Shown here: positions 5,202 to 45,403 of the stretch, piece after piece | Layout: the number at the start of each line of letters is the position of its first letter | How positions within the stretch are numbered: position 1 is the stretch's first letter | From: a virus | Taxonomy: Duplodnaviria; Caudoviricetes | DNA length: 64,000 nt | Strand: one strand, 5' to 3' | Virus record (IMG/VR): IMGVR_UViG_3300025087_000689 | Made by a program: the position numbers and the translations under genes | The notes under the pieces: generated by a model | Told to the model about the DNA's origin: nothing | What the model saw: the letters and a program-made list of their open reading frames with translations, nothing else | Database searches by the model: none

Positions 5202-5326
5202 AACAGAATCCTTTCATTGTGGCATCAATATCGATTATGATATATATAGCCGGTTTAGACACAAGAAACACTAGAAGAAATCCCTCTAGAGATCTTCTTG
5301 ACTTGAACTATAGAGGGTATCTGTTC

Positions 5327-5624: not shown

Positions 5625-5943
5625 AAGTGTAACCTTTCAAAGGCCGTTCCACTTTGAATGTCCTGCCCTGTACTGATATGCCCACATCTGACTTCTCGAA
5701 TGGTACTTCCAGGATCAGTTTGCCTGTCTTGGCTTTGTGATCCATTAAGTAAAAGCCGGAAGGAACTTCATCACCTTCAGCTTGATTCCTGTTGTCCATG
5801 TTGAAGACTTCGCACTTGCACAGGTTTGTGAACTTCTCACGAGTCATCTGCACATCGTAATTACCAAGACGCACAGTGATTGTCTGTTTTTGGACTTTGT
5901 TCATGAGCTTCTGGATGTCTCCAGGCAGTTGATCCTTCTTCAT
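5617..5943 (-). CDS. Hypothetical protein
   Basis: Track ORF; AAAGGA SD. Confidence 0.7.
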   Translation of the reverse strand: MKKDQLPGDIQKLMNKVQKQTITVRLGNYDVQMTREKFTNLCKCEVFNMDNRNQAEGDEVPSGFYLMDHKAKTGKLILEVPFEKSDVGISVQGRTFKVERPLKGYTYA

Positions 5944-5971
5944 TTGTATTCCTTTCTGTTAAGTTGTTAAG

Positions 5972-6178
5972 TTAGCGATGAACGCGATGAACGTGAATCC
6001 ATTCTCTGATCTTTTGTAATTCAGGATCAGATACTGTTCCTCCATTCGGGCCATGTGCAATATCTTCTTGCAGCATTCCGACTACGCCATTTGCTCCGTG
6101 GTCGTGACCTCTCCACCACGCAGGACAAGCACCATCGGTGCAATCAGTCTCGGGAGGAAATGTACAGGTATTAGGCAT
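5972..6178 (-). CDS. Small Cys/His-containing protein
   Basis: Track ORF; AAGGAG SD. Confidence 0.65.
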   Translation of the reverse strand: MPNTCTFPPETDCTDGACPAWWRGHDHGANGVVGMLQEDIAHGPNGGTVSDPELQKIREWIHVHRVHR

Positions 6179-6267
6179 TTGATACTCCTTATGTTAAATT
6201 TTGTGTAGATGACAAATAGGAAAGGCCCCTCTAGTTTAGTCCTAGAGAGGCTATTAATATAGGAGAC

Positions 6268-6456
6268 TTACTCGAATCTGATCTGTGCACGTTTGTGATG
6301 TTTGTCACAGCACACAGGGATTGTATAGTGTGGTCTGTCATAGTCGGGATGGTGTTCCATCCTTTCTGGTTTGCCACAGATCACACATACTTTACCAAGG
6401 AATTCACCAGCCTTTCTACGCATTCTGGTGATGTAGTGGGAGAATATTACTTTCAT
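6268..6456 (-). CDS. Minimal HNH-like zinc-binding protein
   Basis: CVICG....HHPDY..P....VCC..HH; coupled to upstream gene by TAATG overlap. Confidence 0.55.
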   Translation of the reverse strand: MKVIFSHYITRMRRKAGEFLGKVCVICGKPERMEHHPDYDRPHYTIPVCCDKHHKRAQIRFE

Positions 6457-7355
6457 TATTTCACCTCATCAGCGACGAAGATACCCTTTTTGGTGAGGAC
6501 TTTCCCGAATTCACCAATGTCCTTGGTATTGTCGAAGCAATTCGCGAAGATGAACTTCCAGAAGGAATAGTTCAGAGAGCCAGGGAGGCGTTTGCCCTTC
6601 AGATAGCTCTTGATTACCAACTGGTTGCGTGACAGGAAAGGTAATGCAATCCTGTAGTTGCTGTAGTTGAAGTAAGAAGCCCATGCTGCGAGACATGAAC
6701 CACGGGCAAACAAGCGATGCAGATCAGGAGCAATACCCTTCTGTAGTATGGTGTGCAGTTTGTTCACGAAGGCTGCGGTTGCTTTGATCTTTGTTGACGA
6801 GGGTTTGTCAGCCAGGAATTCTTTCTTCCCGCCGTCTTCATTGGTCTGAGCGTTGACCATGATACGTACAGCGTCACGGTAGTCAATTACGCATCCGTGT
6901 TTGTTGGATTTCTCCGCGAGTTTGAACTTGAGAGTTTCCTTGAGAGTATCCAACGCTTCACTGAAGCGTGAATTGGTATACAGCTTCCAGGATGGAGTGG
7001 GATTCACGAAGTTGTTATGAATACCCATCAGTTCCCTGACTTCCTTTGTGTTGATGTAATATATGCATACCAGGAAGAGTTCATCATCTGCGAGGTTGTC
7101 CTTGAAGTGATTGCCATCTATGATGACATCGTCACCACCCTTGACTTCGCCAGCGAATATGATACGCACAGCCTTGGATCCGTTCTCAATGTCTTCCTGT
7201 GCCTCATGTGTGGCAGGGCCTTCGTTGCTACGCTGGTGGATGTTCTTGCCATTGAAACGTGCTTTGAGTTCGCCGATTGTCATGTGGCAAAGATCGAACT
7301 TATAGTCCGAAATCTTGGCTTTGATGTCGGCTGCGATGTTGATGAGATTTTTCAT
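6456..7355 (-). CDS. ParB/DUF262-like N-terminal domain protein
   Basis: HQR and IIDGNH motifs resemble the (Y/F)QR...DGQHR ParB/Srx superfamily signature; AAGGAG SD. Confidence 0.5.
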   Translation of the reverse strand: MKNLINIAADIKAKISDYKFDLCHMTIGELKARFNGKNIHQRSNEGPATHEAQEDIENGSKAVRIIFAGEVKGGDDVIIDGNHFKDNLADDELFLVCIYYINTKEVRELMGIHNNFVNPTPSWKLYTNSRFSEALDTLKETLKFKLAEKSNKHGCVIDYRDAVRIMVNAQTNEDGGKKEFLADKPSSTKIKATAAFVNKLHTILQKGIAPDLHRLFARGSCLAAWASYFNYSNYRIALPFLSRNQLVIKSYLKGKRLPGSLNYSFWKFIFANCFDNTKDIGEFGKVLTKKGIFVADEVK

Positions 7356-7454
7356 GAGCAGATACTCCTTGTATTAATTCTTTCCTGACACTTTTGTCTA
7401 TGAGTGTGTCAACTCATTAATATCAAAAACGAAAATCCCCTCTAGTTTTTTAGG

Positions 7455-7848: not shown

Positions 7849-7925
7849 GGTAACTCCTTGGTTAAATGTAAAAGAAACACTAAGAAAATACCCTCTAGTT
7901 CATTAAGGGATTGGGGAGGGAGGGA

Positions 7926-8417: not shown

Positions 8418-9428
8418 TTATTCAGTTTGTTGTTTAGCAGAACGTTCAGCACCAACACCGGTGAAGTGTTCAATCAAGTCTGATATCTGATCTTCAGTAA
8501 CAACACCATCATCGTTGTCAGAACCATAACTCCATTCCTTGATGGTAGTATAATCATTACGACCATCAGGAATGAAATCAGGTGAATCAATCTTTTCCAA
8601 ATACTTGATATATCCGGTTACTGTACCAAACTCAGCATTACGAAGAGTTCTTTCAGATAACCGAATGATATCACGAATGTGTAAGAGTGACTCGTAGCAG
8701 TCTTTGTCCTTAACAGGTCTCTTACATTCAACTATGTGTAAGTTTCCATCGTATCCTGATAAGATCTTCTTGTTAGTATCCATGAGATACCGTTTGAAAT
8801 CATCGACCTTGATCTTATCGATGGCGTCCACTAATCTGACAGTGTCAAACTCCTTTCTGTTGTCAAATGCATTAACAATTTTCTCGATGATCGGTTTAGT
8901 GGTTTCATAATCAAAGAAAGCCAACTGTTTTGCAACATCGTCATCGAATTCCTTCTCACTGATGATAGTCGGTTTCTGTTTAGGTTCCTGTTGACCTTCT
9001 TCTTTTAAGTATGGACAGAACGTACCAGGAGTCCAATTCGTACGATAGTCACTAACGATACGATCCTGTTCGTCTTCTGACCAACCTTTGAGTGTCAACA
9101 TGTTTTCCAGATTCTTTTCTTGGTTTATCTGACACTCTTTCATCTTAGCACCCACATAGAATTCACACCCAATACATGGACTCACGTGTTTCTCCCATGG
9201 GATAGTAGGATTATCTTCTGTCTTGATATAGTACTCATTCCACTTCCCATTCTCATCTTTCTTCCATTTATGGGTGAACCACCATCCGCGATAGAACCAT
9301 GAGCTACGCACTTTCTTATCCTTACCTTCAGTAAGAACTTCGAATGCGTTACGACGCCAATCCTGTAAGAATTGAGCGAAGTCAGCAATACCGAAGAACT
9401 TAGCAACATTGTCCCAGAACTTTTTCAT
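8418..9428 (-). CDS. Hypothetical protein with 4-Cys cluster
   Basis: AAGGAG SD before ATG 9428 (MKKFWDNV); track ORF starts further 5'. Confidence 0.75.
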   Translation of the reverse strand: MKKFWDNVAKFFGIADFAQFLQDWRRNAFEVLTEGKDKKVRSSWFYRGWWFTHKWKKDENGKWNEYYIKTEDNPTIPWEKHVSPCIGCEFYVGAKMKECQINQEKNLENMLTLKGWSEDEQDRIVSDYRTNWTPGTFCPYLKEEGQQEPKQKPTIISEKEFDDDVAKQLAFFDYETTKPIIEKIVNAFDNRKEFDTVRLVDAIDKIKVDDFKRYLMDTNKKILSGYDGNLHIVECKRPVKDKDCYESLLHIRDIIRLSERTLRNAEFGTVTGYIKYLEKIDSPDFIPDGRNDYTTIKEWSYGSDNDDGVVTEDQISDLIEHFTGVGAERSAKQQTE

Positions 9429-9498
9429 AACATTCTCCTTTAATATACAGTACACCCTACTACATACAGTACACACCATGTGCACCACACTAGTATGG

Positions 9499-9762
9499 TT
9501 ATAGACCTTCCTCACGAATGGTCTGTAGTATCTCATCCACTGTACTATGTGCACAGTATGTAGGTTGATTAACCCACTTGATCATACGCTGCATCCTAAC
9601 ATACACTATACTATCTAACTCTTCTATAGTAGGGTATACCTTAGGTGCGTTAGGTTGTGGTGTATCCTTGTCCTGAAATAAAGGCACATGTGACAATAGG
9701 TTTAGTATTGTGCATAGTATTACTACACACGATACTACTAAGAGCAAGTAGCTCACAGACAT
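9499..9762 (-). CDS. Membrane-anchored small protein
   Basis: AAAGGAG SD; N-terminal hydrophobic helix. Confidence 0.55.
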   Translation of the reverse strand: MSVSYLLLVVSCVVILCTILNLLSHVPLFQDKDTPQPNAPKVYPTIEELDSIVYVRMQRMIKWVNQPTYCAHSTVDEILQTIREEGL

Positions 9763-10038
9763 AGTAACTCCTTTACTTTAATTGTTTAGTACCCAATAAC
9801 TAGTGCACATACAACAATGTCAACCATGATTACAAAGAGCACAGTCATGAAGTCTCTTCCTTGCCGATTCGTTCTTGAGCTTGTTGATGTATGCCTTTCC
9901 CTCTAATTCTCTGTATTTCCAGTAATTTCCACTTGACATTGATTCCATTTCTTTCTGTGTGCATGAGGTGTTCATAATAAGTTCCTTTCAAGAACTTAAA
10001 GTATGCCCTTTTGTCAATGAGTGGGCTAACTCATGTAC

Positions 10039-10245
10039 TTACTCAACGTAAAGCATAGTAACAGATTCAAACTCATCATTCCACGGTATTTTAGAAAGTA
10101 GCGTGAGTGTGTGACTTCTTCTGAATGCAGTGTATTCTTCTTCATCCGCAGTAATAACTTCCCAATTAGGCATTCCATCTGTTGTGGATGCCAGTTTGCG
10201 TAATTGGATTATATTGGCACATGAGATTACTTGATAAATAGTCAT
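10039..10245 (-). CDS. Hypothetical protein
   Basis: Track ORF; AAGGAG SD. Confidence 0.6.
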   Translation of the reverse strand: MTIYQVISCANIIQLRKLASTTDGMPNWEVITADEEEYTAFRRSHTLTLLSKIPWNDEFESVTMLYVE

Positions 10246-10318
10246 TGTGAACTCCTTCTTAATTGTTTAGATACATGTCCTCTCTAGTTAACGTGCAAGA
10301 GGACTAATCACGATTGGA

Positions 10319-10711
10319 TTAGATCGAATCCCAGAAATCTTCTTCATCTTTTTCAGCTTTCGCTTCCAGATATTTATCAGCAATTTCCAACTCAGCGTCT
10401 TCCATACATGAAACATAGTCGGAACCAGCAGCTTCAGGATGATCTTTCCTTTGTCTAAGATCAAAGAGACGATTTGCCTCTTCCTCCACTTCTTGTTCAA
10501 TTGTCATGTTAGACTCCTGTTTAAAGTTATTAACTTCCTTGCGAATAGTGTCATTGTCTCTTGCATCATTCATCATTGATGCTATGTTCTCAATATCATC
10601 TTCTCTTGTGTCTATAAGAAAGAGTTCTTTTCCACATTCAGGGCATTCATTAAGACCGTAGTGAACTGTGTGGTGCTTGTAACAGTTAACGCAAGCGATA
10701 ATCATGTTCAT
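10319..10711 (-). CDS. Zinc-ribbon protein with acidic tail
   Basis: CVNC...CPECG; AAGGAG SD. Confidence 0.7.
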   Translation of the reverse strand: MNMIIACVNCYKHHTVHYGLNECPECGKELFLIDTREDDIENIASMMNDARDNDTIRKEVNNFKQESNMTIEQEVEEEANRLFDLRQRKDHPEAAGSDYVSCMEDAELEIADKYLEAKAEKDEEDFWDSI

Positions 10712-10791
10712 AGTAAACTCCTTGTTAGATACAGTAAGTACTTAGTACATACAGTACACATTATGTGCACTATACTACTAGATACAATGTG

Positions 10792-11133
10792 TTATGCATG
10801 TGCTTTGTGTGTTACTACCATGTGCCTTGTTTCTTTCATGTTATCATCATGAGTGATAACAGTGCTAGTGTGCCATACGCTACTACGTGTACTATGTATG
10901 CCCATACTAGTTAACTTATATGACATATTATCCATGTATGCCATATTCATTCTAGTAGTAGCTACATCTACTATAATCTGTGTGCGATACCCACATGGTA
11001 GCATAGTAGTAGTGATACGTAGCGTAGTAAGATATGACTTACCCCATACTACTATCTCTACTATGGTACATACTAGTACATAGCATGTGAGTAGTATAAT
11101 CAAGTGCCCTAAGAACATGAGTGTTGATAACAT
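10792..11133 (-). CDS. Putative membrane protein in compositionally unusual DNA
   Basis: AAAGGAG SD; N-terminal hydrophobic helix; atypical composition lowers confidence. Confidence 0.45.
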   Translation of the reverse strand: MLSTLMFLGHLIILLTCYVLVCTIVEIVVWGKSYLTTLRITTTMLPCGYRTQIIVDVATTRMNMAYMDNMSYKLTSMGIHSTRSSVWHTSTVITHDDNMKETRHMVVTHKAHA

Positions 11134-11146
11134 GTAATCTCCTTTG

Positions 11147-11281
11147 TTAATAGCCTATTGTTACGCACAATACTACTATCTCTATCATCAATGCTATTGT
11201 GCTAAGCATAATGATATTGAATGTTGTCTTGTTCATTTCTTTTCCTTTCTTTTGTTTAAGTGAATAAGCGTAGACTTTCAT
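11147..11281 (-). CDS. 44-aa membrane micro-protein, first gene of the leftward arm
   Basis: MKVYAYSLKQKKGKEMNKTTFNIIMLSTIALMIEIVVLCVTIGY; AAAGGAG SD. Confidence 0.45.
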   Translation of the reverse strand: MKVYAYSLKQKKGKEMNKTTFNIIMLSTIALMIEIVVLCVTIGY

Positions 11282-11424
11282 AACGAACTCCTTTGTTAAA
11301 AGTTAGAGAGACGTACGGTACCATGAAGCGTCCCGACAACTAGGATATAGAAAACAATAGGTACTCAATCATTTTTGTACTTTCAGAAAAAATATAGAAT
11401 TTTTTTGGAATTTCTAAGACCTAT

Positions 11425-11453
11425 TGGAATTTTAAGATAGAATGAGTTATAAT
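11425..11453 (+). promoter_or_regulatory. Sigma70-type promoter TGGAAT-17-TATAAT
   Basis: Same architecture recurs at 12489, 18892, 28549, 46009 and 51982. Confidence 0.7.
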
Positions 11454-11473
11454 ATACAGTTGAGGGTAGAACA

Positions 11474-12349
11474 ATGGCTAAAATATGTGTAGAATGTGGT
11501 AGAGAATTTCCGTGGCAGATAACTATCAATGGCGTTAGACAAGACTTATCTTGTAGAAAGTATTGTCTAAAATGTCATCCTATTGGAGTAAGGTATGGAA
11601 GAGAAAAAGTTACTCATATCTGTAAAAAGTGTGGGAAGAAAATATCTATTCAGTATAAGTATCGTAAAGGAGATAAGTCGTTTATATGTTTAGATTGTAT
11701 ACCACGAAGAACAACTATAAAAAAATATTGTATAACATGTGGAAGAGAAACGTCTTATGGAAGAAAATATTGTTCAAAGAAATGTATTCCATCTAAACTA
11801 ATAATTACTAATAAAAAATTACATCTATATAAAAGACGATTATTATTAAAACAAAAAGCGTTAGAACTTAATGGTAATTTAAGTTGTTCTTGTGGAGAAA
11901 ATAATATCTATCTTCTTGAATTTCATCATGAACAAGAGAAAGAATTTCAGATTAGTGATAAAATATATAATTATTCACCTAATAAAGAATTTCCTAAAGA
12001 TCTTGTAGATGAAATTAAGAAGTGTTCAGTGTTATGTAAAAAGTGTCACATTAAACAACATCCTGAATTAAGAAGTACTAGAGAAGAAAAGAAATTAGAA
12101 CTTTATAAATATTCTGGAAGTAAGTGTAAAGACTGTAATGAAACTGATATTATATTCATGCATTGGCATCATAGAGATACCTCCACGAAAAAATTTGAGA
12201 TTGGTCGTGGAATTAAAGACGGAAGAAGTCTTAAGTCTTTAAAGTTAGAAGTCGATAAGTGTGATATGTTATGTACTAACTGTCATATATTAAGATTTAA
12301 ACAAAAATACGAAAAGGAAATAGGATATGACAAACATAGAACTAACTAA
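11474..12349 (+). CDS. HNH endonuclease with two tandem HNH domains and N-terminal zinc ribbons
   Basis: Two copies of CxxC...L.FHH....K.F.I....E..KC..LC..CH. Confidence 0.8.
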   Translation: MAKICVECGREFPWQITINGVRQDLSCRKYCLKCHPIGVRYGREKVTHICKKCGKKISIQYKYRKGDKSFICLDCIPRRTTIKKYCITCGRETSYGRKYCSKKCIPSKLIITNKKLHLYKRRLLLKQKALELNGNLSCSCGENNIYLLEFHHEQEKEFQISDKIYNYSPNKEFPKDLVDEIKKCSVLCKKCHIKQHPELRSTREEKKLELYKYSGSKCKDCNETDIIFMHWHHRDTSTKKFEIGRGIKDGRSLKSLKLEVDKCDMLCTNCHILRFKQKYEKEIGYDKHRTN

Positions 12350-14171: not shown

Positions 14172-14666
14172 TTGATATGTGCCTGCCCTGGTCGTTCTTT
14201 ATGTGCCAGACATGAAAAAGTATATGTTTTGGACGTGGAGAATGGTTGGGTCAGGAAAAAATCAGGTCTAAAGCGGGGAGTTCGCAGATATCATAAAACC
14301 GAGACCAAACTACTCGAAATTTTAAAAGAGATTTTTGGTCAAGAGAATGTGATCTCGAGCGTGCACCCGCTTTGGGCCCTTTCCGACAAGGGAGTTCTTC
14401 TTGAGTATGATGTCTGTGTGATGTCAAAACATCTATTAGTCGAGTATGACGGATTGCAGCACTTTGAGTTTTCAAACTTCTTTCATAAAACTCGTAGTGA
14501 ATTTGAAAGTCAAAAAACTAGAGACAGATTAAAGGATAGATTGGCTAAACAAAACGGATGGAAACTGCTCAGGATAAAATACAATGAAGATGTAACTTAT
14601 GGAAACATCTTTAAAAAACTATCAACAATGAGGTTAACATGCCCGAAAGAGAAGACAGAATACTAG
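14172..14666 (+). CDS. Vsr/DUF559-like (EDxHD-type) endonuclease
   Basis: LEYDV....LLVEYDGLQH...RD..K...A..NGW.LLRI.Y; start codon uncertain. Confidence 0.7.
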   Translation: MICACPGRSLCARHEKVYVLDVENGWVRKKSGLKRGVRRYHKTETKLLEILKEIFGQENVISSVHPLWALSDKGVLLEYDVCVMSKHLLVEYDGLQHFEFSNFFHKTRSEFESQKTRDRLKDRLAKQNGWKLLRIKYNEDVTYGNIFKKLSTMRLTCPKEKTEY

Positions 14667-15559: not shown

Positions 15560-16198
15560 GTGATTATCTACTGTGTTGAAAATATAATATCAGGTAAAAA
15601 GTATATTGGAAAGAGTAAAAATTCTTTACAAGAAAGAATGAAATCTCATTTCTTTAAAATTAGAAATGGCGTGAAAACCAAATTTTATGATGCTATTAGA
15701 TCTTATGGAATCGATAATTTTAAGTATTATATCCTTGATCAGGCATTCACCGCAGATGAATTAAATGAAAAAGAAATAAAATATATTAAGTTATTTGATA
15801 CTATTAATTCTGGGTATAATATGGTAGAGGGTGGAACTGGTGGAGATACAATGTGTCATCATCCTAATAAGGAAGAAATCTATAAAAAGATAGGAAAGAA
15901 ATGTTCTATTGCTTTAAAAGGTCGTATATTTACTGAAGAGCACAGATTAAATATGTCTAAATCTCGTGTAGGACATAAATGGACTTTAGAACAAAGACAA
16001 AAACTTTCCAATTCTATTAAAGGTGAGAATCACCCTTTATTTGGAAAGTTTCATTCTGAAGAAACAAAGAGAAAAATTGGATTATCATCAAAAATAAAAC
16101 ATAAACGTATTTGTTTAACTTGTAATACTGAATTTTATGGTGGCAGATCTGCAAAATATTGTCAATGTAAATGTAAACCCCTCGCATTGGTTATATAA
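15560..16198 (+). CDS. GIY-YIG homing endonuclease with NUMOD3-like tails
   Basis: IIYCVENIISGKKYIGKS...R...H, E..YI, GYN, and H(T/S)EE.K/R..(I/M)S repeats; GTG start with AAAGGA. Confidence 0.85.
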   Translation: MIIYCVENIISGKKYIGKSKNSLQERMKSHFFKIRNGVKTKFYDAIRSYGIDNFKYYILDQAFTADELNEKEIKYIKLFDTINSGYNMVEGGTGGDTMCHHPNKEEIYKKIGKKCSIALKGRIFTEEHRLNMSKSRVGHKWTLEQRQKLSNSIKGENHPLFGKFHSEETKRKIGLSSKIKHKRICLTCNTEFYGGRSAKYCQCKCKPLALVI

Positions 16199-16715: not shown

Positions 16716-17516
16716 ATGGCTGAAGATCAACGTATTATCGATCAAGTTAAAAGAGAGAAAGCTGAGTTTGAAAAAACAGTAGAAACTGAAGCAATTCAAA
16801 CTCAAAAGGAATTAATCAATCAAGATGAACTTCTACCTGTAACCCAAATTGGACAGAAGAATGTTCTGAATCTATTTAAAGATTATTACCCCCCCGAAGC
16901 ACTTGAACATATGAGTATTGAACCAGCAAAGGTTGAAGCTTTGGCCGGTGCTTTAAAAACAATGGTTAGAAATGTTATAAAGACCTCTAATCCTATTATA
17001 TGTCTTGCTCAGAAATGTTATGCAGCTGAACGATGTCCCATTCAAAAGGCTGGTGTGGCTCCAACGAGTCATAGTTGTCCAATTGAACTTATGTTAATAG
17101 ATCAATGGGAATATGATTATATTGATGATCTTGGTGTTGATAAACAATCTAAAGTTGAGATCGATCTAGTAAGGGATATGGTTGAATCAGATCTTATAGA
17201 CTGGCGTGCATCACATGAATTGGCTAGAGGTGGACTCTTTGATTGGAATGCGATAGGAATGACGGAAGATGGTAAACCTATCTATCGTAAAGAAGAGGCC
17301 GTGGCCATCGGTATTAAACTTAAGTTTAAAGCCAGGAAGGATCGTATACGTGAAGATCTAATGGCCACTCGAAAGATGCGTGCTAAGTTTGGTTTAGCTA
17401 AGACTATGGATCCATCTAAATTTGCAGCTGCGTTACAGGATCGTTATAATGCTATTAAGAAAGCTGAAATTATAGATGAAGATCCAATTGAAGAGATGCA
17501 TGAGGAGCACGAGTAA
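16716..17516 (+). CDS. Cys-cluster protein; terminase small subunit candidate
   Basis: C..C...CP...CP.E cluster, helical body, upstream of TerL; assignment is positional only. Confidence 0.35.
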   Translation: MAEDQRIIDQVKREKAEFEKTVETEAIQTQKELINQDELLPVTQIGQKNVLNLFKDYYPPEALEHMSIEPAKVEALAGALKTMVRNVIKTSNPIICLAQKCYAAERCPIQKAGVAPTSHSCPIELMLIDQWEYDYIDDLGVDKQSKVEIDLVRDMVESDLIDWRASHELARGGLFDWNAIGMTEDGKPIYRKEEAVAIGIKLKFKARKDRIREDLMATRKMRAKFGLAKTMDPSKFAAALQDRYNAIKKAEIIDEDPIEEMHEEHE

Positions 17517-18926: not shown

Positions 18927-21900
18927 ATGAAAGCTAAAGAGAAAAAAGATTTATTAATTAAGGGTTTTACCCCTGATGAGATACAACAATTAGAGATACA
19001 ACAAAGTCCTTCTCTTTGGGCTGAAACATATTTATATGATCCCGAAAAACCAGGTAAATCATTACAATTGAGATCATATCAAAAAGATATATTAGAATGC
19101 AAAAGTAAAAAGAAGGTACTAAGATTAGGTCGAAGATCAGGGAAAAGTATTTGTTTGTGTATTGAATCTTTATACAAAGCTTTTATAACTGAAAATACCA
19201 GAGTTCTTATTTGCACACCTTATAAAATTCAGACCAGAAACTTATGGAAAGATGGTTTTCAGAAATTAATTAAAGGTAATAAACTTCTTGAGAGTTCTAT
19301 AATTAGAATGGGACAAAATCCCTATCTTATTGAATTTAAAAATGGTGCCAGAATAATGGGATTAACTGCTGGTTCTTCTACTGGAAATAAGGGTGGATCT
19401 ATTAGAGGTTCATCTGCTGATCATTTAATAATGGATGAGATTGATTACATGGGTGAAGAAGCAATCCAATCTATTATGGCTATTACCGCCACAAATAAAA
19501 ACACAACTCTAACTATATCATCTACACCAACTGGTAGACGAGAATTCTTTTATAATGCGTGTACAAATAAAAATTTAGGGTTCCAGGAATTTTATTTTCC
19601 ATCATCTTCAAGTCCTGAATGGACATCTATAGAACAAGCAAAAAAACTAGGATTACCTCTGCATGAATCGCAAGAATACGTATTTAGAAATATGTATCCC
19701 GAAGATGTTTTTATTAGAGAGTATATGGCCGTTTTTGGTGAAGAATCTCAAGGGGTTTTTAAACACAAATACATCGACGCGGCTTTAGTGAAATATGATC
19801 CTGATAGCGAAGTAGCCGATTCTATGGGTTTTAAATGGTTCTGTGGGGCTGAACAGAATGAGGATAATCTATATTCGATGGGTGTTGATTGGAATGGCAC
19901 AAAGGTTGGAACTCAAATAGTTATTACAGAATATTGCCGAGTATCAACTAATGTTAATTATGTTATAGAAGATGATAATGGAAAAACGATAAAACAAACA
20001 TCAACAGTTATTAAAAAATATAGAGTGTTTTATCGTGAATCTGTGTCAATGGAAGAAATGACGCAATTAGAATCAATACATAGAATTATAGAACTAACGA
20101 AGAAATTCAAGATAGATCATATATATGTTGATAATGGTTTTGGAACTTGTGTTGCCCCGGATACATTGATATATACAAATAGAGGGGTTAAACCAATTTC
20201 AAATATAATCATCGGCGATTTAGTTATGACGAAAAATGGAACATTTGAAAGAGTTTTGGATACAATAACTAGAAAAGATATTAAAGACTCATATAAATTA
20301 ATTCCATCTAAATGTTTAGCAACAACTGCAAGTTTTTGTCATCCTTTTTTAACTTATAGAAGTTCTAATAGATTTAAAGATAAAAATATTAATGAGGGAA
20401 ATTTAGTTTGGAGGCAGTGTTCTGAAATAGATATAAAAAAAGATTTTATAGCGATTAGTAAGACAAAAAACCTGGAAAATAAAACAAGTGATATTATTGA
20501 TCTTTATCAATTATTAAAAAATGTACAAGGATTAAAGCACGATAAAATGAATATATGGTTAAGTTCATCATATAAAATAAAAGATCGAAATTATTTAAGT
20601 GCTTATGAATTAAGTAAAATATGTTCCACTTCTAAAATTATGATAACCAGAATTCGTAGTAAACTAAGAAATAAGTTAAAGTTAACAGAACATCAAATGA
20701 GGATATATAAGAAAAATAAAAACGCTCTTAATGTTTTACCGGAAATAATAAAACTTCCCAGATATATCGATATATTATCTGAAGATTTCCAACGAATTTA
20801 TGGTTGGTTTTTGTCTGAAGGTAATTGTAATACTAATAGTATTGAAATATCTCAAAAAGTTGGAAATCACACTGAAGAGATTAATAGTTTAAAAAAATCA
20901 ATTTCTAACATTTTTGGATACTCTTTTTTATCTGAATATATAAAAAAAGAAGTTAGACGAATTGTTATTAGTTCAAAATTAATTTCTATTATTTTTGAGA
21001 CTCTTGGTGGTAAATATTGTTATAATAAATTCATTCATCCTGAATTTATGAAACATCCGAAATCATTAGGTGTATTTTTTAATTCGATAATATTAGGAGA
21101 TGGTAGTAAGGTTAAGAATAAAATTGGATATTGTATTAGTTTAACTAGTTCATCATTAATATTTCAATTAAGACAAATATTAATAGATAATGGAATTCTT
21201 CCATCTATTAATTTTTTAGGGAAAAGAAGTAAAGAACATAATGATCAATGGTTACTTCAAATATTCGGAACCTTTGAAATAATGAAAAAATTCAATAATT
21301 TTACCAAATTACCTTTAAAAAATACGGAAAGAAAAACTAGAAACAAATATATAGAAATTGATAATTATTTTTTAGTCCCCATAAGAAAATTAGAAAAAAT
21401 TGAATCTTGTTCCGGTCTTGTTGATATTAAAGTCGATAACGAACACAGTTTTTGTGGCAATGGAGTAGTTCTACATAATACGAATATCGAAGAGTTAAAA
21501 TTATACGGTAAGAAATTTCCTGAATCTGATATGAATCGTAAACTAGTTGCAATAGATTTTGCCAGTAAGATATCTATTTTTGATCCTTATTCTAAAGAAG
21601 AAGTGGATAAGGCGATGAAACCTTTTACAGTAAATAATGCTGTAACTTGTCTCGAAAGAGGAGAATTAATTCTTCCTGATATTGAAGATGAAAAAGTAAA
21701 ATTGATTGGTCAAATGAGAGAATATAGAATTGAGAAAATTAGTACTTTAGGAATACCAAGATATTCCGAAGACAACGATCATATTCTAGATGCTTTCATG
21801 CTTTCTCTTCTAGCATTTCAGATGGAATATAGTACCTTAATACGACTGGCACACACCAGTCAGATAGCTATATCTAATAAACCTACTCTTCTTATGCGTG

Positions 21901-22139
21901 GACTTAGTGAAGTCCAAGACAGAACTACATCATTGAAGAAAGATAAGTTGCAAGAAATGGGTGTTCCTAAGAGACAACCTGCATTTGGTACTGAGAAGTA
22001 TCATTCGGATAGTCGTGGTGGTCATATGGATTACGAAGACTTATATAAAACGTCTCCGACTACATCGACTCCATTTACCGGACAACCATTGAGATCATCC
22101 TGGAATAAAATAAACGCTCCAACCCGGACTAATTTTTAA
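18927..22139 (+). CDS. terL: Terminase large subunit containing an intein
   Basis: LRSYQ (Q motif), GRRSGKS Walker A, LIMDE Walker B, STP, SMGVDW and YVDNGFG nuclease motifs, DHILDA. Confidence 0.95.
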   Translation: MKAKEKKDLLIKGFTPDEIQQLEIQQSPSLWAETYLYDPEKPGKSLQLRSYQKDILECKSKKKVLRLGRRSGKSICLCIESLYKAFITENTRVLICTPYKIQTRNLWKDGFQKLIKGNKLLESSIIRMGQNPYLIEFKNGARIMGLTAGSSTGNKGGSIRGSSADHLIMDEIDYMGEEAIQSIMAITATNKNTTLTISSTPTGRREFFYNACTNKNLGFQEFYFPSSSSPEWTSIEQAKKLGLPLHESQEYVFRNMYPEDVFIREYMAVFGEESQGVFKHKYIDAALVKYDPDSEVADSMGFKWFCGAEQNEDNLYSMGVDWNGTKVGTQIVITEYCRVSTNVNYVIEDDNGKTIKQTSTVIKKYRVFYRESVSMEEMTQLESIHRIIELTKKFKIDHIYVDNGFGTCVAPDTLIYTNRGVKPISNIIIGDLVMTKNGTFERVLDTITRKDIKDSYKLIPSKCLATTASFCHPFLTYRSSNRFKDKNINEGNLVWRQCSEIDIKKDFIAISKTKNLENKTSDIIDLYQLLKNVQGLKHDKMNIWLSSSYKIKDRNYLSAYELSKICSTSKIMITRIRSKLRNKLKLTEHQMRIYKKNKNALNVLPEIIKLPRYIDILSEDFQRIYGWFLSEGNCNTNSIEISQKVGNHTEEINSLKKSISNIFGYSFLSEYIKKEVRRIVISSKLISIIFETLGGKYCYNKFIHPEFMKHPKSLGVFFNSIILGDGSKVKNKIGYCISLTSSSLIFQLRQILIDNGILPSINFLGKRSKEHNDQWLLQIFGTFEIMKKFNNFTKLPLKNTERKTRNKYIEIDNYFLVPIRKLEKIESCSGLVDIKVDNEHSFCGNGVVLHNTNIEELKLYGKKFPESDMNRKLVAIDFASKISIFDPYSKEEVDKAMKPFTVNNAVTCLERGELILPDIEDEKVKLIGQMREYRIEKISTLGIPRYSEDNDHILDAFMLSLLAFQMEYSTLIRLAHTSQIAISNKPTLLMRGLSEVQDRTTSLKKDKLQEMGVPKRQPAFGTEKYHSDSRGGHMDYEDLYKTSPTTSTPFTGQPLRSSWNKINAPTRTNF
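20148..21479 (+). mobile_element. Intein (444 aa) with LAGLIDADG endonuclease in TerL
   Basis: CVAPDT N-terminus, HPF block B, GWFLSEG and LGDG motifs, VDIKVDNEHSF..VLHN followed by Thr. Confidence 0.92.
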
Positions 22140-37800: not shown

Positions 37801-40019
37801 ACGATGCGGCAACTTCTAATGAAAGTGCGGAAACGGAAGTTACACCAACGGCTAATATCAGTTCTCAAAACCTTATAATACAGTCAGATGCATTTAATAC
37901 AACTTGGGTAGCTGCCAGAATTACAGTTACTGCAAATCAAACCTCTCCTTTTACAACTCCTTTAGAAGTACTTCCAAATACGGCAGCGACACAACTGGCT
38001 GATAAGTTAGCTGCAACTGGAGCCAGTGGACATATATCACAGGGATTTACCTCTGTTAGTGGAACTACATACACCTTCTCAGTATTTAACCGTTGCGATA
38101 ATATAGTTGGCACTCCAGTTGTATCAGGGTGGGTTGGACTAAGCGGTTCAGCAACAAATTACACTGTAACTCACTTCGTGGCTTCCGGTTCATGGCAGAG
38201 ATCATCAGTGACGTTTACAGCGGTTGATACCACGACGACAGCTTTTATAGGAGTTGATACAAACACACAATACATATACACATGTTCAGCAATGTTAAAT
38301 AGTGGCGTAGTAGCCGAACCACCAATCAAGACCACAACAGTGGCCGTGACAAACACTAATACAATTTCGCGAGATATATCTGCACTACAATCATGGTGTA
38401 GAAGTTACGGTAATGAAACTAGATTTTCTGGTCTTCAATATATTGTTGCACCTGCTAATAATACCGGTGATTTATTTACAGAAACATACCTAGGTACTTC
38501 TGGAACATTCGTCCCGTCGTTATTAAATAGAATTAGAATAATAGGTGATACTACGGCATGGTCATTTTCGTTAGTAATATCGATCAGTTATCAGTCAAAT
38601 GATAATATAATTAGTAACTTTACACAACTTGGTCGTGGGGCACCTTATGCCTTTTTATATTTTACACTTATGTCTAATAATAATATAGTGAGAAACATAA
38701 CTTTGGATTGTGGGTTTCGAGCACAGGGATCTGTGATCCAGTTTGCAACTGGATCATCTAATAATAGATGTCAGAATTTTGAATTCCGAGGGATTAAAAA
38801 TTATACTACATTCACCCCTTATCTATTTACAAATTTAGCATTTGATTCTTTTCTTGAAAATATTAGATGTGATGTTACGGATTTTTCTGTTCCCTTGTTA
38901 TTACCTAATAATAGTGTTTTTAAAGGTGTCGCTGGTGGAAATGCAACACCTGCCAATGGTGCCATTACCTGGGTTCATGGTTCGACTACGGATGGAATGC
39001 CAATAGCACCCGTCGCTGTATACGACACTAATTTCTTTGAGATGTATCATACCCCTACTTCCGGTGCGTTATATCTATTGTTTAATGATAGTATAAAAGA
39101 TACACCACCCTATACTATATTATCTGGCGTTCCTGTATTTGGTAATAACGGCAAATTATACTTTCAATCACCTGAAGATAGTATAGAATGGGAGTGGCCG
39201 CATAAAATTATTGGTGTTAGTGGTTTTGCAAATAGAGAACCTAAAATCAGCACAGTGGATCTTGGTACTTCAACGGATGTATTTGAAGGTTTATATGGTG
39301 AGTATTGCGTTAAAGCTGGAACATTTGGTGCTACTTATGGCAGTTATAAACAAATGACTGCGGCTAACCTATCATCTGAAACGATATCGGTTTCTGGTTT
39401 CTATATTAAAATTAAGTTAACAGCAAAACAGTTCATGAAATATGGAGCTCAAACTAATCCTTTTGTAATTGGGGAGTGGATAAAAGGAAATGTATCACAA
39501 GCCAGTGGTATGGTTACTAATGATTTTGATTTAGGATCAACTGGAACTGTTTGGGTATCTGGTGTTGTAGGAACATTTAATCCAACTGAAGCAATAGTTA
39601 AACATTCAACTGGAACTACAAGGGCAACGAACGTTGCAACTAATACATTATATGCTTTAGGTCCATCATATCTATCTTGCATTAATGGGTTGCAGATATA
39701 TACTCAGATAGACCAGACGGTTCACTATCCGTTAACTACTGTTAATGCAACCCTTACTATTACAGGTCTTCAAGCTGATACTGAAGTTAGAGTTTATCGA
39801 ACATCAGATGATGTTGAACTTGCCGGTTCAGAGAGTGTAATGACTGGTACATTCACATACGATTATGAATGGAATAGTACAGATGGAGATACTAGCGTTT
39901 ATATTAGAATCATGTCATTAACTTATAAATGGATGACATATACAGATCAATTACTTGGAGAAGATGGACTTGATATATTAGTCCAACAAGTTTATGATCG
40001 TAACTTCGAAAATCCGTAA
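34815..40019 (+). CDS. Giant adhesin-like virion appendage or fibre protein (Asp-box propeller plus beta-rich regions)
   Basis: 1734 aa, Thr/Ser/Gly-rich, seven S.DG.TW repeats, C-terminal TITGLQ.DTEVRVY module. Confidence 0.7.
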   Translation: MAAVTINVDTNIDDIIAMQHVTVASGVATSQSSVDGITWVSRTMPSSSTWQSVVFGSGMAVAVSSTNGTVAASSPDGITWTARTLPSTSVWYDIAYGSGLFVAVSTNNSNKTAYSSDGITWTSGNISSTGNWRSVIYGSGQFIALSYNSNIFARSADGITWTSGSLPSTVNWNDVAYDWTLGRYVAVAYDSDITAYSDDGVNWTSGNIHSSSNWNWVTSNNLGRFVAVSAVAGVVGGYSNDGITWSSGTMPVTTTWQAVTYAPLGPNGPLWTANGLTTFAASSTNGINWVQRAQITMSCTASCYAPFSWRSNDTLTIDKRAIVTVNTDQKKFWSGSLTVTNGRLKVINTSITDAIRFIMGRTTGILVHSIIPTNGQGIIDISGSMITIGQSSGVANQVFTAPYTDYIPTVWVETGPASGVYEMWNNTRAEYGNTLPGFDNGLNATCSGRRGMFFEQGVNTNYDESFVLLNSTTVVGLRIITVSSTTGIMTGASISGTNIQTGTVVEAILSATELEVNLAPTGSATTTTVTLFNPLKSQLTNQITFGDGTYGTIPPSGSYIKIPNIMVTSETAANVGNAQYATTGLSINLSFGGSAYLQNCLFDESYNNFTQGQNLTIKNVGMVIMPLLVEIYNLIIDGFAITQGGTYRRFYSTFWFTRDSRSNIGGLVLSYCNNAVMNDLYLSSQSFHVASPAFPLKLDFCKDVTLTNYRAVNITPLYNAINSCALYLYSSNNCTITGIEAYGIGAVFLSFSSNNTISNITWAEHVQFNSAGYTMTGDRLGYDPVTGSDLIEGQKYYIKLRTYHDRKREIYWDSKTYSFTPFLGAQLFPDYFACNCTVSQTVVLGWTNRSPVYLYEVFRSTALGFGTRDLTTLMYASTVAATVAFTNGPVTQAIPTAVTDTWTWNAAGKTLTRSAGTGTSFLTLGFILGMVVDVTETASNNGTFILSACTATVMTFANVGPYTQTIVAEAAAVIGKINGRTPANDTTYYYVLRKWDDAATSNESAETEVTPTANISSQNLIIQSDAFNTTWVAARITVTANQTSPFTTPLEVLPNTAATQLADKLAATGASGHISQGFTSVSGTTYTFSVFNRCDNIVGTPVVSGWVGLSGSATNYTVTHFVASGSWQRSSVTFTAVDTTTTAFIGVDTNTQYIYTCSAMLNSGVVAEPPIKTTTVAVTNTNTISRDISALQSWCRSYGNETRFSGLQYIVAPANNTGDLFTETYLGTSGTFVPSLLNRIRIIGDTTAWSFSLVISISYQSNDNIISNFTQLGRGAPYAFLYFTLMSNNNIVRNITLDCGFRAQGSVIQFATGSSNNRCQNFEFRGIKNYTTFTPYLFTNLAFDSFLENIRCDVTDFSVPLLLPNNSVFKGVAGGNATPANGAITWVHGSTTDGMPIAPVAVYDTNFFEMYHTPTSGALYLLFNDSIKDTPPYTILSGVPVFGNNGKLYFQSPEDSIEWEWPHKIIGVSGFANREPKISTVDLGTSTDVFEGLYGEYCVKAGTFGATYGSYKQMTAANLSSETISVSGFYIKIKLTAKQFMKYGAQTNPFVIGEWIKGNVSQASGMVTNDFDLGSTGTVWVSGVVGTFNPTEAIVKHSTGTTRATNVATNTLYALGPSYLSCINGLQIYTQIDQTVHYPLTTVNATLTITGLQADTEVRVYRTSDDVELAGSESVMTGTFTYDYEWNSTDGDTSVYIRIMSLTYKWMTYTDQLLGEDGLDILVQQVYDRNFENP
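34905..35700 (+). repeat. Seven roughly 41-codon Asp-box (BNR-like) coding repeats
   Basis: GATGGTATAAC(A/G/T)TGG-like units near 34917, 35040, 35163, 35283, 35409, 35535, 35667. Confidence 0.85.
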
Positions 40020-43681: not shown

Positions 43682-45403
43682 ATGAATGATAATATTATAA
43701 ATCTTTATAGTCCAGATGGTTCTGGAGCTTCAACGGCTGATTTGTTTGCTTTATCTGGTACTCTGCAAACATCTATTTATAACACATCTGGAACCCTAGT
43801 CACTTTAATAGCTAATACTTCTGGAACACTTGATACTGCTATTTATAATGCTTCGGGGTTATTTCTACGGCAAGATGGTACTACTCCTTTAACCGGAGAT
43901 TGGAATGCAGGTGGATATAATATAACTAACAGTGGTAATCTTAGTGTTCGTGATTATATTAGGGTTGGCAATATTACAGACGACGTAGCAAAGGAATGTA
44001 ATGTACTTGGACAAAACTTCGACTCTGGAACAGAGACCGAAGGTTTTAGCATGATTCATGGATGGAATGCTGCATCCAACGCAAACCTATTAGATATTGG
44101 TGGTGGTTCTGCATCATATAATGCAGTGTCATATGTCACCTTTTATACAGCGGCAAATGCTTCAACACGTATTGGAACAGCACGAGGAAGATTTGATGCT
44201 AATGGTTTATTAGATGTTTACTATGGACTAAATGTGCAAGGCGAAGTGACTGCTAGTGGTCTAACGTGTCCACAATATAATTCAGATCTTAATACATTTA
44301 GTGGTCATGTTGGGGTCGGTAGTACTGCCCTAACTAATGCGTCTTTACTCGTCAAAAATATTAGTGTAGTACAGGGTAGTGAAAACTTTTATGGTATATA
44401 TAATTATCATGATAGAGGATCAGGTACTGGTACTTACGCTAACGACATATTAAATCACTATAATTTTTTAAACCTAAGTCAAGTCAATGGAGAGTATGGT
44501 ACAGTTTATGGTATATATAATGAAACTCAATTAGCAGCAGGTACAGTTGGTAGAGTTGGTTTTAATCAAAATTTTTATGGTCAATATACTCTCATGGATA
44601 TGAATGGTGGTACCGTTTGTGGTGTTACTATGGGTACTTATATTAATATGGATATAGAACCCGCAGTATTTTGTTCTGGTCAAATACTAGCTTTACAAGC
44701 TAGAGTAGGACCTGATGGAGATGTGCTTGGTAACGTAACCGGTATTAGAGGTACTGTAGATCAAGCAGCTGGTAAAACTATCACTGGTGATGCATATGCG
44801 ATCCACGCTGATATGGATATAGATGGTACTGTTACTGGTAATACTGTTATGGTTTATATAGAAGAACATTCAAATGTTGACTATGCTATATATCACACCG
44901 GTACAGCACCCAGTGTATTAGGTGGAGATATTAGTGTTAGTGGTAGTCTTCAACTTGGTATTTATACAATAGAAAGAACTTTTAGTGTTGCACTTAGTGA
45001 TTCAGTGGCCGCTACTATATGCACTATAACAACTCCTGATAACCCGTCATACGATGGTGGAGGATATTCAGTATTTATAGATGGACAGGTATTTCATGGG
45101 GGTAATAGTTCAGCAACAAATGCCGCTAAGTGGTTTCAGGTAAAATATTCACATATAAATGACACTACTGGAAACACAGGAGATTCAACACCTGAGATTT
45201 CTTACTCCGCTACATCAGCGGCGGATGCTTCGGCTACGCGTGATATTGGTGTAATTAGTTTTGCTGCGGGTGCAGCTGGTGGTAATTATGTGAGAACTAT
45301 GGATATTACAGCTGATTTTACAGGAACCACAATAATGACAGGTCGAGTAGTAGCACACGTTAAAGTTGTTTACTATGGTTATAGTACTATAACTGTAACG
45401 TAG
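43682..45403 (+). CDS. Tail fibre or appendage-like protein
   Basis: FLRQDGTTPLTGDW.AGG..ITN fibre motif; NTSGTL repeats; Gly-rich beta repeats. Confidence 0.65.
   Translation: MNDNIINLYSPDGSGASTADLFALSGTLQTSIYNTSGTLVTLIANTSGTLDTAIYNASGLFLRQDGTTPLTGDWNAGGYNITNSGNLSVRDYIRVGNITDDVAKECNVLGQNFDSGTETEGFSMIHGWNAASNANLLDIGGGSASYNAVSYVTFYTAANASTRIGTARGRFDANGLLDVYYGLNVQGEVTASGLTCPQYNSDLNTFSGHVGVGSTALTNASLLVKNISVVQGSENFYGIYNYHDRGSGTGTYANDILNHYNFLNLSQVNGEYGTVYGIYNETQLAAGTVGRVGFNQNFYGQYTLMDMNGGTVCGVTMGTYINMDIEPAVFCSGQILALQARVGPDGDVLGNVTGIRGTVDQAAGKTITGDAYAIHADMDIDGTVTGNTVMVYIEEHSNVDYAIYHTGTAPSVLGGDISVSGSLQLGIYTIERTFSVALSDSVAATICTITTPDNPSYDGGGYSVFIDGQVFHGGNSSATNAAKWFQVKYSHINDTTGNTGDSTPEISYSATSAADASATRDIGVISFAAGAAGGNYVRTMDITADFTGTTIMTGRVVAHVKVVYYGYSTITVT

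Follow-up and report, generated by a model that had tools for sequence, protein, structure and literature searches.

The 64,000-nucleotide (nt) stretch of DNA analysed here (the window; IMG/VR record IMGVR_UViG_3300025087_000689, Caudoviricetes) comes from an uncultured groundwater jumbo phage of about 221 kb and carries, beside the point at which its genes change direction, a block in which purines (R) and pyrimidines (Y) alternate far more often than elsewhere. This block is a genuine statistical outlier, and its anatomy is that of a conserved stem-loop module next to an orphan open reading frame (ORF), ORF113, both written in one vocabulary of short words. A weaker patch in the same leftward operon holds a second copy of the module. 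We tentatively interpret the alternating elements as structured-RNA elements of the early transcript, probably sites of processing or stability.

Alternation and vocabulary of the block

An earlier, sequence-only reading of this DNA had counted 47 alternating steps among the 59 of positions 10741-10800, a count that we reproduce exactly. The alternation profile covers the 64 kb of the window plus a 9-kb extension, 73 kb in total. Across the window, spans of 59 steps hold on average 28.8 alternating steps (standard deviation (SD) 4.4) and at most 49, in the span that starts at 10743. Just 21 spans reach 47 or more, 19 of them starting at 10738-10756 and the other two at 9443-9444. The maxima at 100, 200 and 450 bp are also found here (0.76, 0.74 and 0.689, the window mean being 0.488 and the SD 0.062, 0.050 and 0.040), and the excess over the mean is about 4-5 SD at all scales between 59 and 450 bp. 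The alternation of the block is thus far beyond the variance of the window.

Alternation is 0.684 in the 80-bp intergenic segment 10712-10791 and 0.680 in ORF113 (10792-11133), and drops to 0.33 at 11134-11146, 0.52 in ORF44, 0.444 in ORF130 and 0.43 in the gap at the polarity switch (11282-11473), values that set the limits of the block at 10712-11133. The span proposed earlier, 10730-11180, therefore captured the right region but ended slightly too far along, as alternation is only 0.33-0.52 past 11134; the proximity to the polarity switch described at the same time holds, at 150-760 bp. A second, weaker patch covers an intergenic module and ORF87 (Table 1), and a third hot spot lies at 2101-2349. 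In the block, every perfectly alternating run is shorter than 14 nt, so that the alternation is statistical and not that of a tract. Elsewhere in the window, the longest perfectly alternating run (16 nt, at 38270) falls in a hot spot (38250-38414) of a gene of 1734 amino acids (aa), and a 573-aa gene (43682-45403) has the highest alternation among long genes (0.559).

The word content described earlier is borne out. TAC and CAT are each enriched 3.8-fold, GTG 3.4-fold and GTA 2.6-fold, AA and GG stand at 0.28-fold and 0.11-fold, and the palindromic 4-mers GTAC, CATG and CTAG are indeed common, at 5-7-fold in the block (5-9-fold for the set that also includes CATAC). The most distinctive feature of the block, rather than alternation as such, is the word pair TACTA/TAGTA, the two being mutual reverse complements. 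The pair occurs 19-20 times per 420 bp against 1.64 +/- 1.98, which is the maximum of the window (z about 9), and its second-highest peak, with 13 occurrences, is at 9385-9805. Within the block the two words are split over the strands, 11 and 8. The suggestion that the DNA is unusually flexible is upheld as far as sequence traits go, given that the densities of YR steps and of TpA are window maxima and that A-tracts of at least four are absent (0 against 5.7). The G+C content of the block is 36%, against 36.5% for the window, and its duplex stability is ordinary (60th-70th percentile), on which ground a melting or unwinding element was rejected. The block has no tandem repeats, and (CG)3, (CA)4, (TG)4 and (TA)5 occur nowhere in the window.

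Such a vocabulary could also be read by a protein on duplex DNA. TACTA/TAGTA and TpA steps free of A-tracts would then be nucleation sites for a nucleoid or silencer protein that binds the minor groove, or for a regulator of the phage, ahead of the control regions of ORF130 and ORF336, with a near-palindrome, GTGCAC-N5-GTGTAC, and paired TACTGTAT octamers as operators. The density of the word pair at both peaks, its presence on both strands, the lack of A-tracts and the TpA maximum match the published preference of Rok, a silencer of Bacillus subtilis, for TACTA and multiple TpA steps, with A-tracts disfavoured (PMC6212790). The octamer TACTGTAT occurs four times on the minus strand in 73 kb, solely in the two stem-loop modules described below and in pairs 19-20 nt apart. 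Rok also prefers AACTA, but neither this word (1 against 1.6) nor ATATA (1 against 3.0) is enriched, and the block is no richer in AT than the genome, in contrast to the high AT content of Rok-type regions. Furthermore, none of the neighbouring genes was identified as encoding a Rok-like or other DNA-binding protein. Two observations set out below also count against this possible but unlikely reading: the words are strand-biased in a related phage, which fits a single-stranded form better, and the wobble-only changes of the stem favour RNA.

The sequence-only reading had itself proposed avoidance of CRISPR protospacer-adjacent motifs (PAMs) on DNA supposed to enter the cell first, Z-prone DNA, or fewer sites for ultraviolet (UV) dimers. 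PAM-like motifs are partly depleted: pooled, they number 37 against 82.7 +/- 11.1, the second lowest of 302 windows, with TTC, TTTV and NNGRR at or near the lowest, and TT/AA number 34 against 84.5. However, GG/CC ranks only 15th of the 302 and AAG 29th, CT, AG and CC are not depleted (CC is even enriched 1.3-fold), and any protection would extend to just 0.4 kb of the 221-kb genome. The equivalent blocks in related phages are hairpin arrays, which explain the pattern without PAMs. A tendency towards Z-DNA is contradicted by the lack of any uninterrupted alternating run of at least 14 nt and of CG or CA/TG tracts, and a reduction in UV-dimer sites is not supported as a driver. We regard this group of mechanisms as highly improbable; the peak at 10741-10800 is better accounted for by a conserved RNA stem-loop.

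A further alternative dispenses with any function of the nucleic acid. ORF113 would be an odd small membrane protein, rich in Thr, Met, His, Val and Tyr and thus in RYR/YRY codons, with some drift in codon use, and its Met/His-rich tail could bind metal. The frame is significantly open: it lacks stops altogether, its two minus-strand alternatives have 15 and 12, and an open run of at least 117 codons arises in 10 of 2000 dinucleotide shuffles. A spurious frame produced by a depletion of stops through alternation was rejected, as stop trinucleotides are above average in the block (68 against 53; TAG/CTA is enriched). ORF113 also has a strong ribosome-binding site (RBS) at the correct distance and a skewed composition, with Thr at 15.9% (7.5% in other genes), Met at 8.8% (2.3%) and His at 6.2% (1.5%). 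This composition alone lifts the expected alternation from the 0.484 of typical genes in this phage to 0.586 +/- 0.017 or 0.594 +/- 0.017, when synonymous codons are resampled with the usage of all genes or of early genes. The observed 0.680 is still above these values (z 5.6 and 5.0, respectively), which means that the protein accounts for about half of the excess. Amino-acid composition, which the sequence-only reading had named as an explanation that would undo its own, is therefore half of the answer, and codon choice and codon order supply the rest. Val is encoded by GTA in 10 of 11 cases against a usual fraction of 0.24-0.32, CTA, ATA and AGC are over-used, and when the order of the codons is shuffled the alternation is 0.612 +/- 0.015 and none of 2000 trials attains 0.680.

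The pattern also extends beyond this protein. The flanking 80 bp of non-coding DNA alternate equally, and ORF87 shows the same overlay, with an alternation above the expectation from its protein (z 4.1-4.4). Compared with codon-order shuffles, the folds of ORF113 (z -3.3) and ORF87 (z -4.1) are more stable, with 0 of 120 shuffles as good in either case, whereas that of ORF130 is not (z +0.3). Taken together, the resampling, codon-order and fold controls place the signal at the nucleotide level and tie it to self-complementarity, and we consider a purely protein-level cause distinctly unlikely. ORF113 also has no homologue to support such a cause: searches among 5.8 billion clustered proteins and an exhaustive HMMER scan of 1.84 billion representative proteins returned only ORF113 itself, there is no Pfam or PHROG match, and its codon-usage score is 0.036 against 0.43 +/- 0.14 for known genes. 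ORF113 is probably a real, very young orphan gene, arisen in or overprinted on the structured block, and it may have originated de novo. A young gene of this kind would explain why the composition of the block is found again in its amino acids, codon choice and codon order.

A stem-loop module in two copies

The two intergenic hot spots share a 38-nt repeat (family D3), 84% identical and present in exactly two copies in 73 kb, and the alignment of the copies extends over about 55 nt and reaches the RBS. Each copy folds into a stem-loop (Table 1), and copy B is the very peak window of the sequence-only reading. Copy A lies 3 nt past the stop codon of ORF87 and ends 30 nt ahead of the ATG of ORF336 (9428), and copy B lies 12 nt past the stop codon of ORF113 and ends 32 nt ahead of the ATG of ORF130 (10711). 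Both hairpins are thus intercistronic within a co-directional, putative early operon, which is the location expected of RNase III-type sites.

Pairing is maintained between the copies: 14 of the 17 pairs are invariant, two alternate between G.U and A-U, in one C-G is exchanged for G-C in a compensatory swap, and all of them stay paired. The loop sequence varies. The compensatory swap is exactly an exchange between TACTA and TAGTA. Three wobble pairs are common to both copies and become C/A mismatches on the plus strand, and the fold energies are -17.7 and -22.5 kcal/mol on the minus strand against -9.6 and -15.4 kcal/mol on the plus strand. Stem changes of the wobble-only type argue for RNA. 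A further 3-4 outer pairs beyond a 1-nt interruption bring the stem, which has one bulge, to about 20-21 pairs in total, to be compared with the roughly two turns, or at least 20 bp, of RNase III substrates.

On this basis, the alternation may be a by-product of a restricted, self-complementary vocabulary (TACTA/TAGTA, GTAC, CATG, GTATG/CATAC, many TpA steps and no A-tracts) that would mark the leftward, early operon in its promoter-proximal part. The alternation would peak most sharply at the intercistronic RNA stem-loop module, both copies of which directly follow a stop codon, with the next start codon 30-32 nt further on, and which may act on the early polycistronic transcript as a site of processing, stability or translation coupling. 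Stems made of TA, CA and TG steps could drift by transitions, from A-U through G.U to G-C, with both the pairing and the purine/pyrimidine class kept. The remaining 340 bp would be ORF113, as a young gene formed in a structured block.

Other signals were sought at the module. No sigma-70 promoters or intrinsic terminators were found there, promoter-like matches being at chance level, and ATACTAG was rejected as a promoter box, since three of its nine matches in the window lie in or beside the blocks but share no second box. A covariance model of the module found no further copy in 360 kb of this phage and related phages, and Rfam covariance models gave no match at E <=1 within 9000-12000.

Table 1. 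Features of the alternating region and the surrounding leftward operon (positions in the window)
Feature	Position	Strand	Description
Alternating block, whole	10712-11133	-	Alternation 0.68; TACTA/TAGTA 19 against 1.5 expected
Second, weaker alternating patch	9429-9800	-	13 TACTA/TAGTA; intergenic module and ORF87
Stem-loop copy B	10743-10780	-	17 pairs, one bulged G, 3-nt loop UAA
Stem-loop copy A	9458-9495	-	Same 17-pair hairpin, loop UGG
TACTGTAT octamers, module B	10749-10756, 10729-10736	-	Inside the 3' arm and just ahead of the RBS, respectively; direct, 20 nt apart
TACTGTAT octamers, module A	9464-9471, 9445-9452	-	Pair
ORF113	10792-11133	-	Orphan, 113 aa; hydrophobic N-terminus, Thr/Met/His/Val-rich tail
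RBS of ORF113, AAAGGAG	11139-11145	-	Strong; 5 nt ahead of the ATG
ORF44	11147-11281	-	First small ORF of the leftward operon; ordinary alternation, 0.52
ORF130	10319-10711	-	N-terminal CxxC...CxxC; ordinary alternation, 0.44; internal control
RBS of ORF130, CAAGGAG	10718-10724	-	About 30 nt past the stem-loop; start codon at 10711
ORF87	9499-9762	-	Alternation 0.60 against 0.51 expected from its protein
Polarity switch	11282-11473	.	Between the leftward early block and the rightward block leading to the terminase; alternation 0.43

The genes to the left of 11281 point leftward, in the order ORF44, ORF113, an 80-nt gap, ORF130, ORF68, ORF87, a 70-nt gap and ORF336 from the switch, and those from 11474 onwards point rightward towards the terminase at 18927. 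No homologue was found for ORF336, and IMG/VR contains no relatives of the small proteins nearby or of the motif. DNA similarity between ORF44 and the start of ORF113 is confined to the RBS region and an exact 15-mer (11170-11184 = 11046-11060), and BLASTP gave no support for the two being paralogues. Further down the leftward operon, a second family of intergenic elements with a CTAGAGGG core occurs at 5263-5289, 7872-7898, 6213-6237 and 7424-7448, some of them terminator-like. This family replaces the alternating module downstream, so that the early operon is punctuated by at least two types of element. Further along on the minus strand, a strong hairpin at 2255-2325, with an alternating stem of 13+5 bp flanked by runs of A and U, has the look of a bidirectional terminator (z -5.8) and adjoins a structured, G/C-rich segment at 2320-2400 (z -3.3); the two make up the third hot spot of alternation, at 2101-2349.

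Related phages and genome ends

Many groundwater metagenomes have yielded the phage in nearly identical form, and six assemblies agree exactly over the region; across 9300-11500, only two differences between samples were seen, C/T at 10023 and at 10053, both outside the alternating blocks. Its large terminase is closest to those of Moorella phage MTATph1 and Bacillus phage 0305phi8-36, and the closest relatives with a matching gene layout (P0003 and P0011) have terminases that are 69-70% identical. A nucleotide search of a cultured-phage collection gave no match. A terminase profile retrieved 51 metagenomic and 39 IMG/VR loci, all but one at most 41% identical, the exception (L067, 57% identical) having too little upstream DNA. 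Alternation was compared in 300-bp windows over 669 kb of DNA from related phages and 32 IMG/VR loci.

The highest 300-bp value of a locus normally has a z of 2.1-3.9, at scattered positions. Besides the phage studied here, the outliers are a 244-kb groundwater phage (L017, z 5.4) and L024/L053 (z 4.3), which belong to a family of jumbo phages from the gut; a further member of that family (L023, z 3.9) sits at the upper limit of the usual range. In L017 the block at 5840-6347 has an alternation of 0.74 and occupies exactly the same place as here, after the first small gene of the leftward operon and before the second. The peaks of L017, L023 and L024 adjoin the polarity switch and precede, by 1.3-2.0 kb, the homologue of a 266-aa protein that is also encoded ahead of the terminase here, and their blocks are non-coding arrays of long hairpins. 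The arrays fold on the early-sense strand with z -4.6 in L017, -8.6 in L023 and -6.0 in L024, and G.U pairs, counted in minimum-free-energy folds, number 26, 19 and 12 on that strand against 6, 6 and 5 on the other. The words of L017 are strand-biased too, with TACTA 7 times against TAGTA once and CATAC 10 times against GTATG once. Non-coding DNA is not alternating in general, as other non-coding segments in these phages average 0.493 +/- 0.048. Two other features of L017 were noted at its switch and leftward genes: an exact 19-nt tandem pair (6648-6695) with a promoter-like box of the TATACT type, and a repeated leader element of about 45 nt before the first two leftward genes (5806-5850 / 6545-6600).

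The comparison with related phages therefore gives a divided answer, and the feature is recurrent but sporadic, not a conserved trait of the clade. Positional recurrence as a general trait was dropped: in 8 of 10 relatives the peak seemed to lie upstream of the gene for the 266-aa protein, but the only real outliers are L017, L023 and L024/L053, with the others within the range of the 32 further loci. A 15-mer common to L017 and this phage was likewise discarded as a sign of homology, being not significant against Markov controls.

Several observations count against a structured RNA as the source of the pattern. The alternating feature is absent from the cultured relatives 0305phi8-36, KLEB27-3 and MTATph1 and from about 30 further relatives, and the blocks of this phage and L017 have no detectable homology, with composition and vocabulary alone in common. 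The strand bias of G.U pairs in the relatives could stem partly from skewed base composition. Within the window, a stem of 17 pairs (about 20-21 with the outer ones) is at the low end for RNase III substrates. Compared with dinucleotide-preserving shuffles, the two hairpins have a z of only -0.1 and -0.9, the whole block -1.4 and the second patch -1.9, because any sequence this alternating is self-complementary. As there are just two copies of the module, covariation is thin and rests on a single compensatory pair, and a shuffle control on pair conservation does not discriminate with two sequences (248 of 500). We infer that the region is transcribed, that RNA would be the active form, rather than single-stranded or duplex DNA, and that its role would be in processing or stability.

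The position of the block could instead point to the end of the genome. In 0305phi8-36, the leftward genes are located in the 6479-bp terminal repeat, which has its inner boundary (6479) within the equivalent switch (6395/6671) (PMC3357382). The homologue of the 266-aa protein follows 1.76 kb downstream of that boundary. This synteny makes it plausible that the block is near a genome end, and by analogy it could lie 0.2-0.8 kb inside the boundary of a terminal repeat. The block would then be a cis element situated immediately within the inner boundary of such a long repeat and used in concatemer processing, repeat duplication, packaging or a staged stop during injection. The 0305phi8-36-like terminase and the hairpin arrays of L017, L023 and L024, at a similar distance from the 266-aa homologue, are in line with such an element, as is the injection-stop region of phage T5, in which repeats and palindromes form a non-coding array across the boundary of the terminal repeat (bioRxiv 10.1101/866236). 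Independent assemblies of about 221.2 kb plus a k-mer overlap, with differing break points, fit a collapsed terminal repeat or circular permutation.

In the phage studied here, the distance from the block to the 266-aa gene is 5.6 kb and spans endonuclease-type genes. Against a genome-end element, 0305phi8-36, KLEB27-3 and MTATph1 have no alternating block at the switch. The block is, furthermore, an open ORF with an RBS (117 codons, with 80 bp intergenic) and not stop-rich non-coding DNA. No DnaA box (TTWTNCACA), let alone a pair, is found in 10712-11133, the sole box within 9000-12000 being at 10628, and strand-specific wobble pairs would be unexpected in a site recognized as duplex. A genome-end element is thus, in our view, rather improbable. 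Under a broader conjecture, to which we give still less weight, alternating, strand-specific hairpin blocks at the switch of several uncultured 0305phi8-36-like jumbo phages would form a distinct class of cis elements on the end that enters first, as hairpin-type start, pause or stop sites for a virion RNA polymerase delivered through the tail, or as a signal for staged entry or terminal-repeat processing; in this phage ORF113 would have been born de novo there as a translated orphan gene.

Other features of the surrounding genome were also seen. All relatives examined encode the 266-aa protein (16716-17516), among them 0305phi8-36 as gp112, and its gene always precedes the terminase. The protein gave only a weak TnsD-like match at its N-terminus and none in PHROG, and is a candidate for DNA recognition or for a role like that of a small terminase. 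Between the switch and the terminase stand three genes of endonuclease type, at 11474-12349 (HNH), 14172-14666 (matching HNH/homing-endonuclease families) and 15560-16198 (GIY-YIG/NUMOD3). The large terminase itself (18927-22139) has 1070 aa against about 630 in its closest relatives. Longer homologues carry Intein_splicing and LAGLIDADG Pfam domains, and tblastn matches to cultured phages come in two pieces; together with the excess length, this suggests that the gene probably holds an intein. Three independent assemblies end at 5858, 5975 and 6205, with no clear bearing on the genome ends. A small ORF at 5858-6205 varies between samples (68 or 71 aa, with a 1-nt shift in one record), and this is probably a strain-variable spot at which assemblies break.

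Significance and known systems

If the alternating elements do act as structured RNA, the two-copy stem-loop with its octamer pair would be a concrete regulatory module for the first genes of an uncultured 221-kb phage. Strong R/Y alternation could then serve as a flag for overlaid RNA structure rather than for an adaptation in DNA defence, and ORF113 would offer a candidate case of gene birth inside a structured non-coding block. If the block instead marks the boundary of a terminal repeat, it would help to define the ends and the polarity of entry for a group of metagenomic jumbo phages.

The element can be set beside four known systems. Like the binding regions of Rok in Bacillus subtilis (Duan et al. 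2018, PMC6212790), it combines an enrichment in TACTA with many TpA steps and a lack of A-tracts; unlike them, it is not AT-rich or enriched in AACTA, and the words of L017 are strand-biased. With the injection stop signal, or Repeat Region 3, of T5 (Davison, bioRxiv 10.1101/866236), it shares the nature of a complex, palindrome-rich cis region among the early genes. That of T5 is found on the inner edge of a long terminal repeat, and synteny with 0305phi8-36 would put the block here beside the expected repeat boundary. The T5 region is 1.2-1.7 kb long, stop-rich and non-coding, with paired DnaA boxes and many repeat families, in contrast to the open ORF, the single hairpin family and the absence of DnaA boxes in this phage.

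In Thermus phage P23-45, conserved promoter motifs and 26-nt terminator motifs of the pre-early genes are read by a virion RNA polymerase fused to the tape measure protein (Chaban et al. 2024, PMC10770324). There, as here, repeated motifs specific to the phage punctuate the first genes; a likeness in sequence would not be expected.

The closest analogy, as far as we can judge from predicted structure and position, would be with the RNase III sites between the early cistrons of T7 (R-sites) and of the Bacillus phage SP82, whose early mRNA sites are credited to Panganiban and Whiteley (1983) as cited in PMC4838370. The elements described here differ from those sites in their stems of 17 pairs (about 20 with the outer ones) rich in alternating steps and G.U, in having two copies, in being predicted from sequence, and in a vocabulary that spreads 350-450 nt upstream into coding sequence. 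In common with them, similar stem-loops are repeated between early cistrons, just upstream of the next RBS, with pairing kept between the copies and specific to the sense strand.

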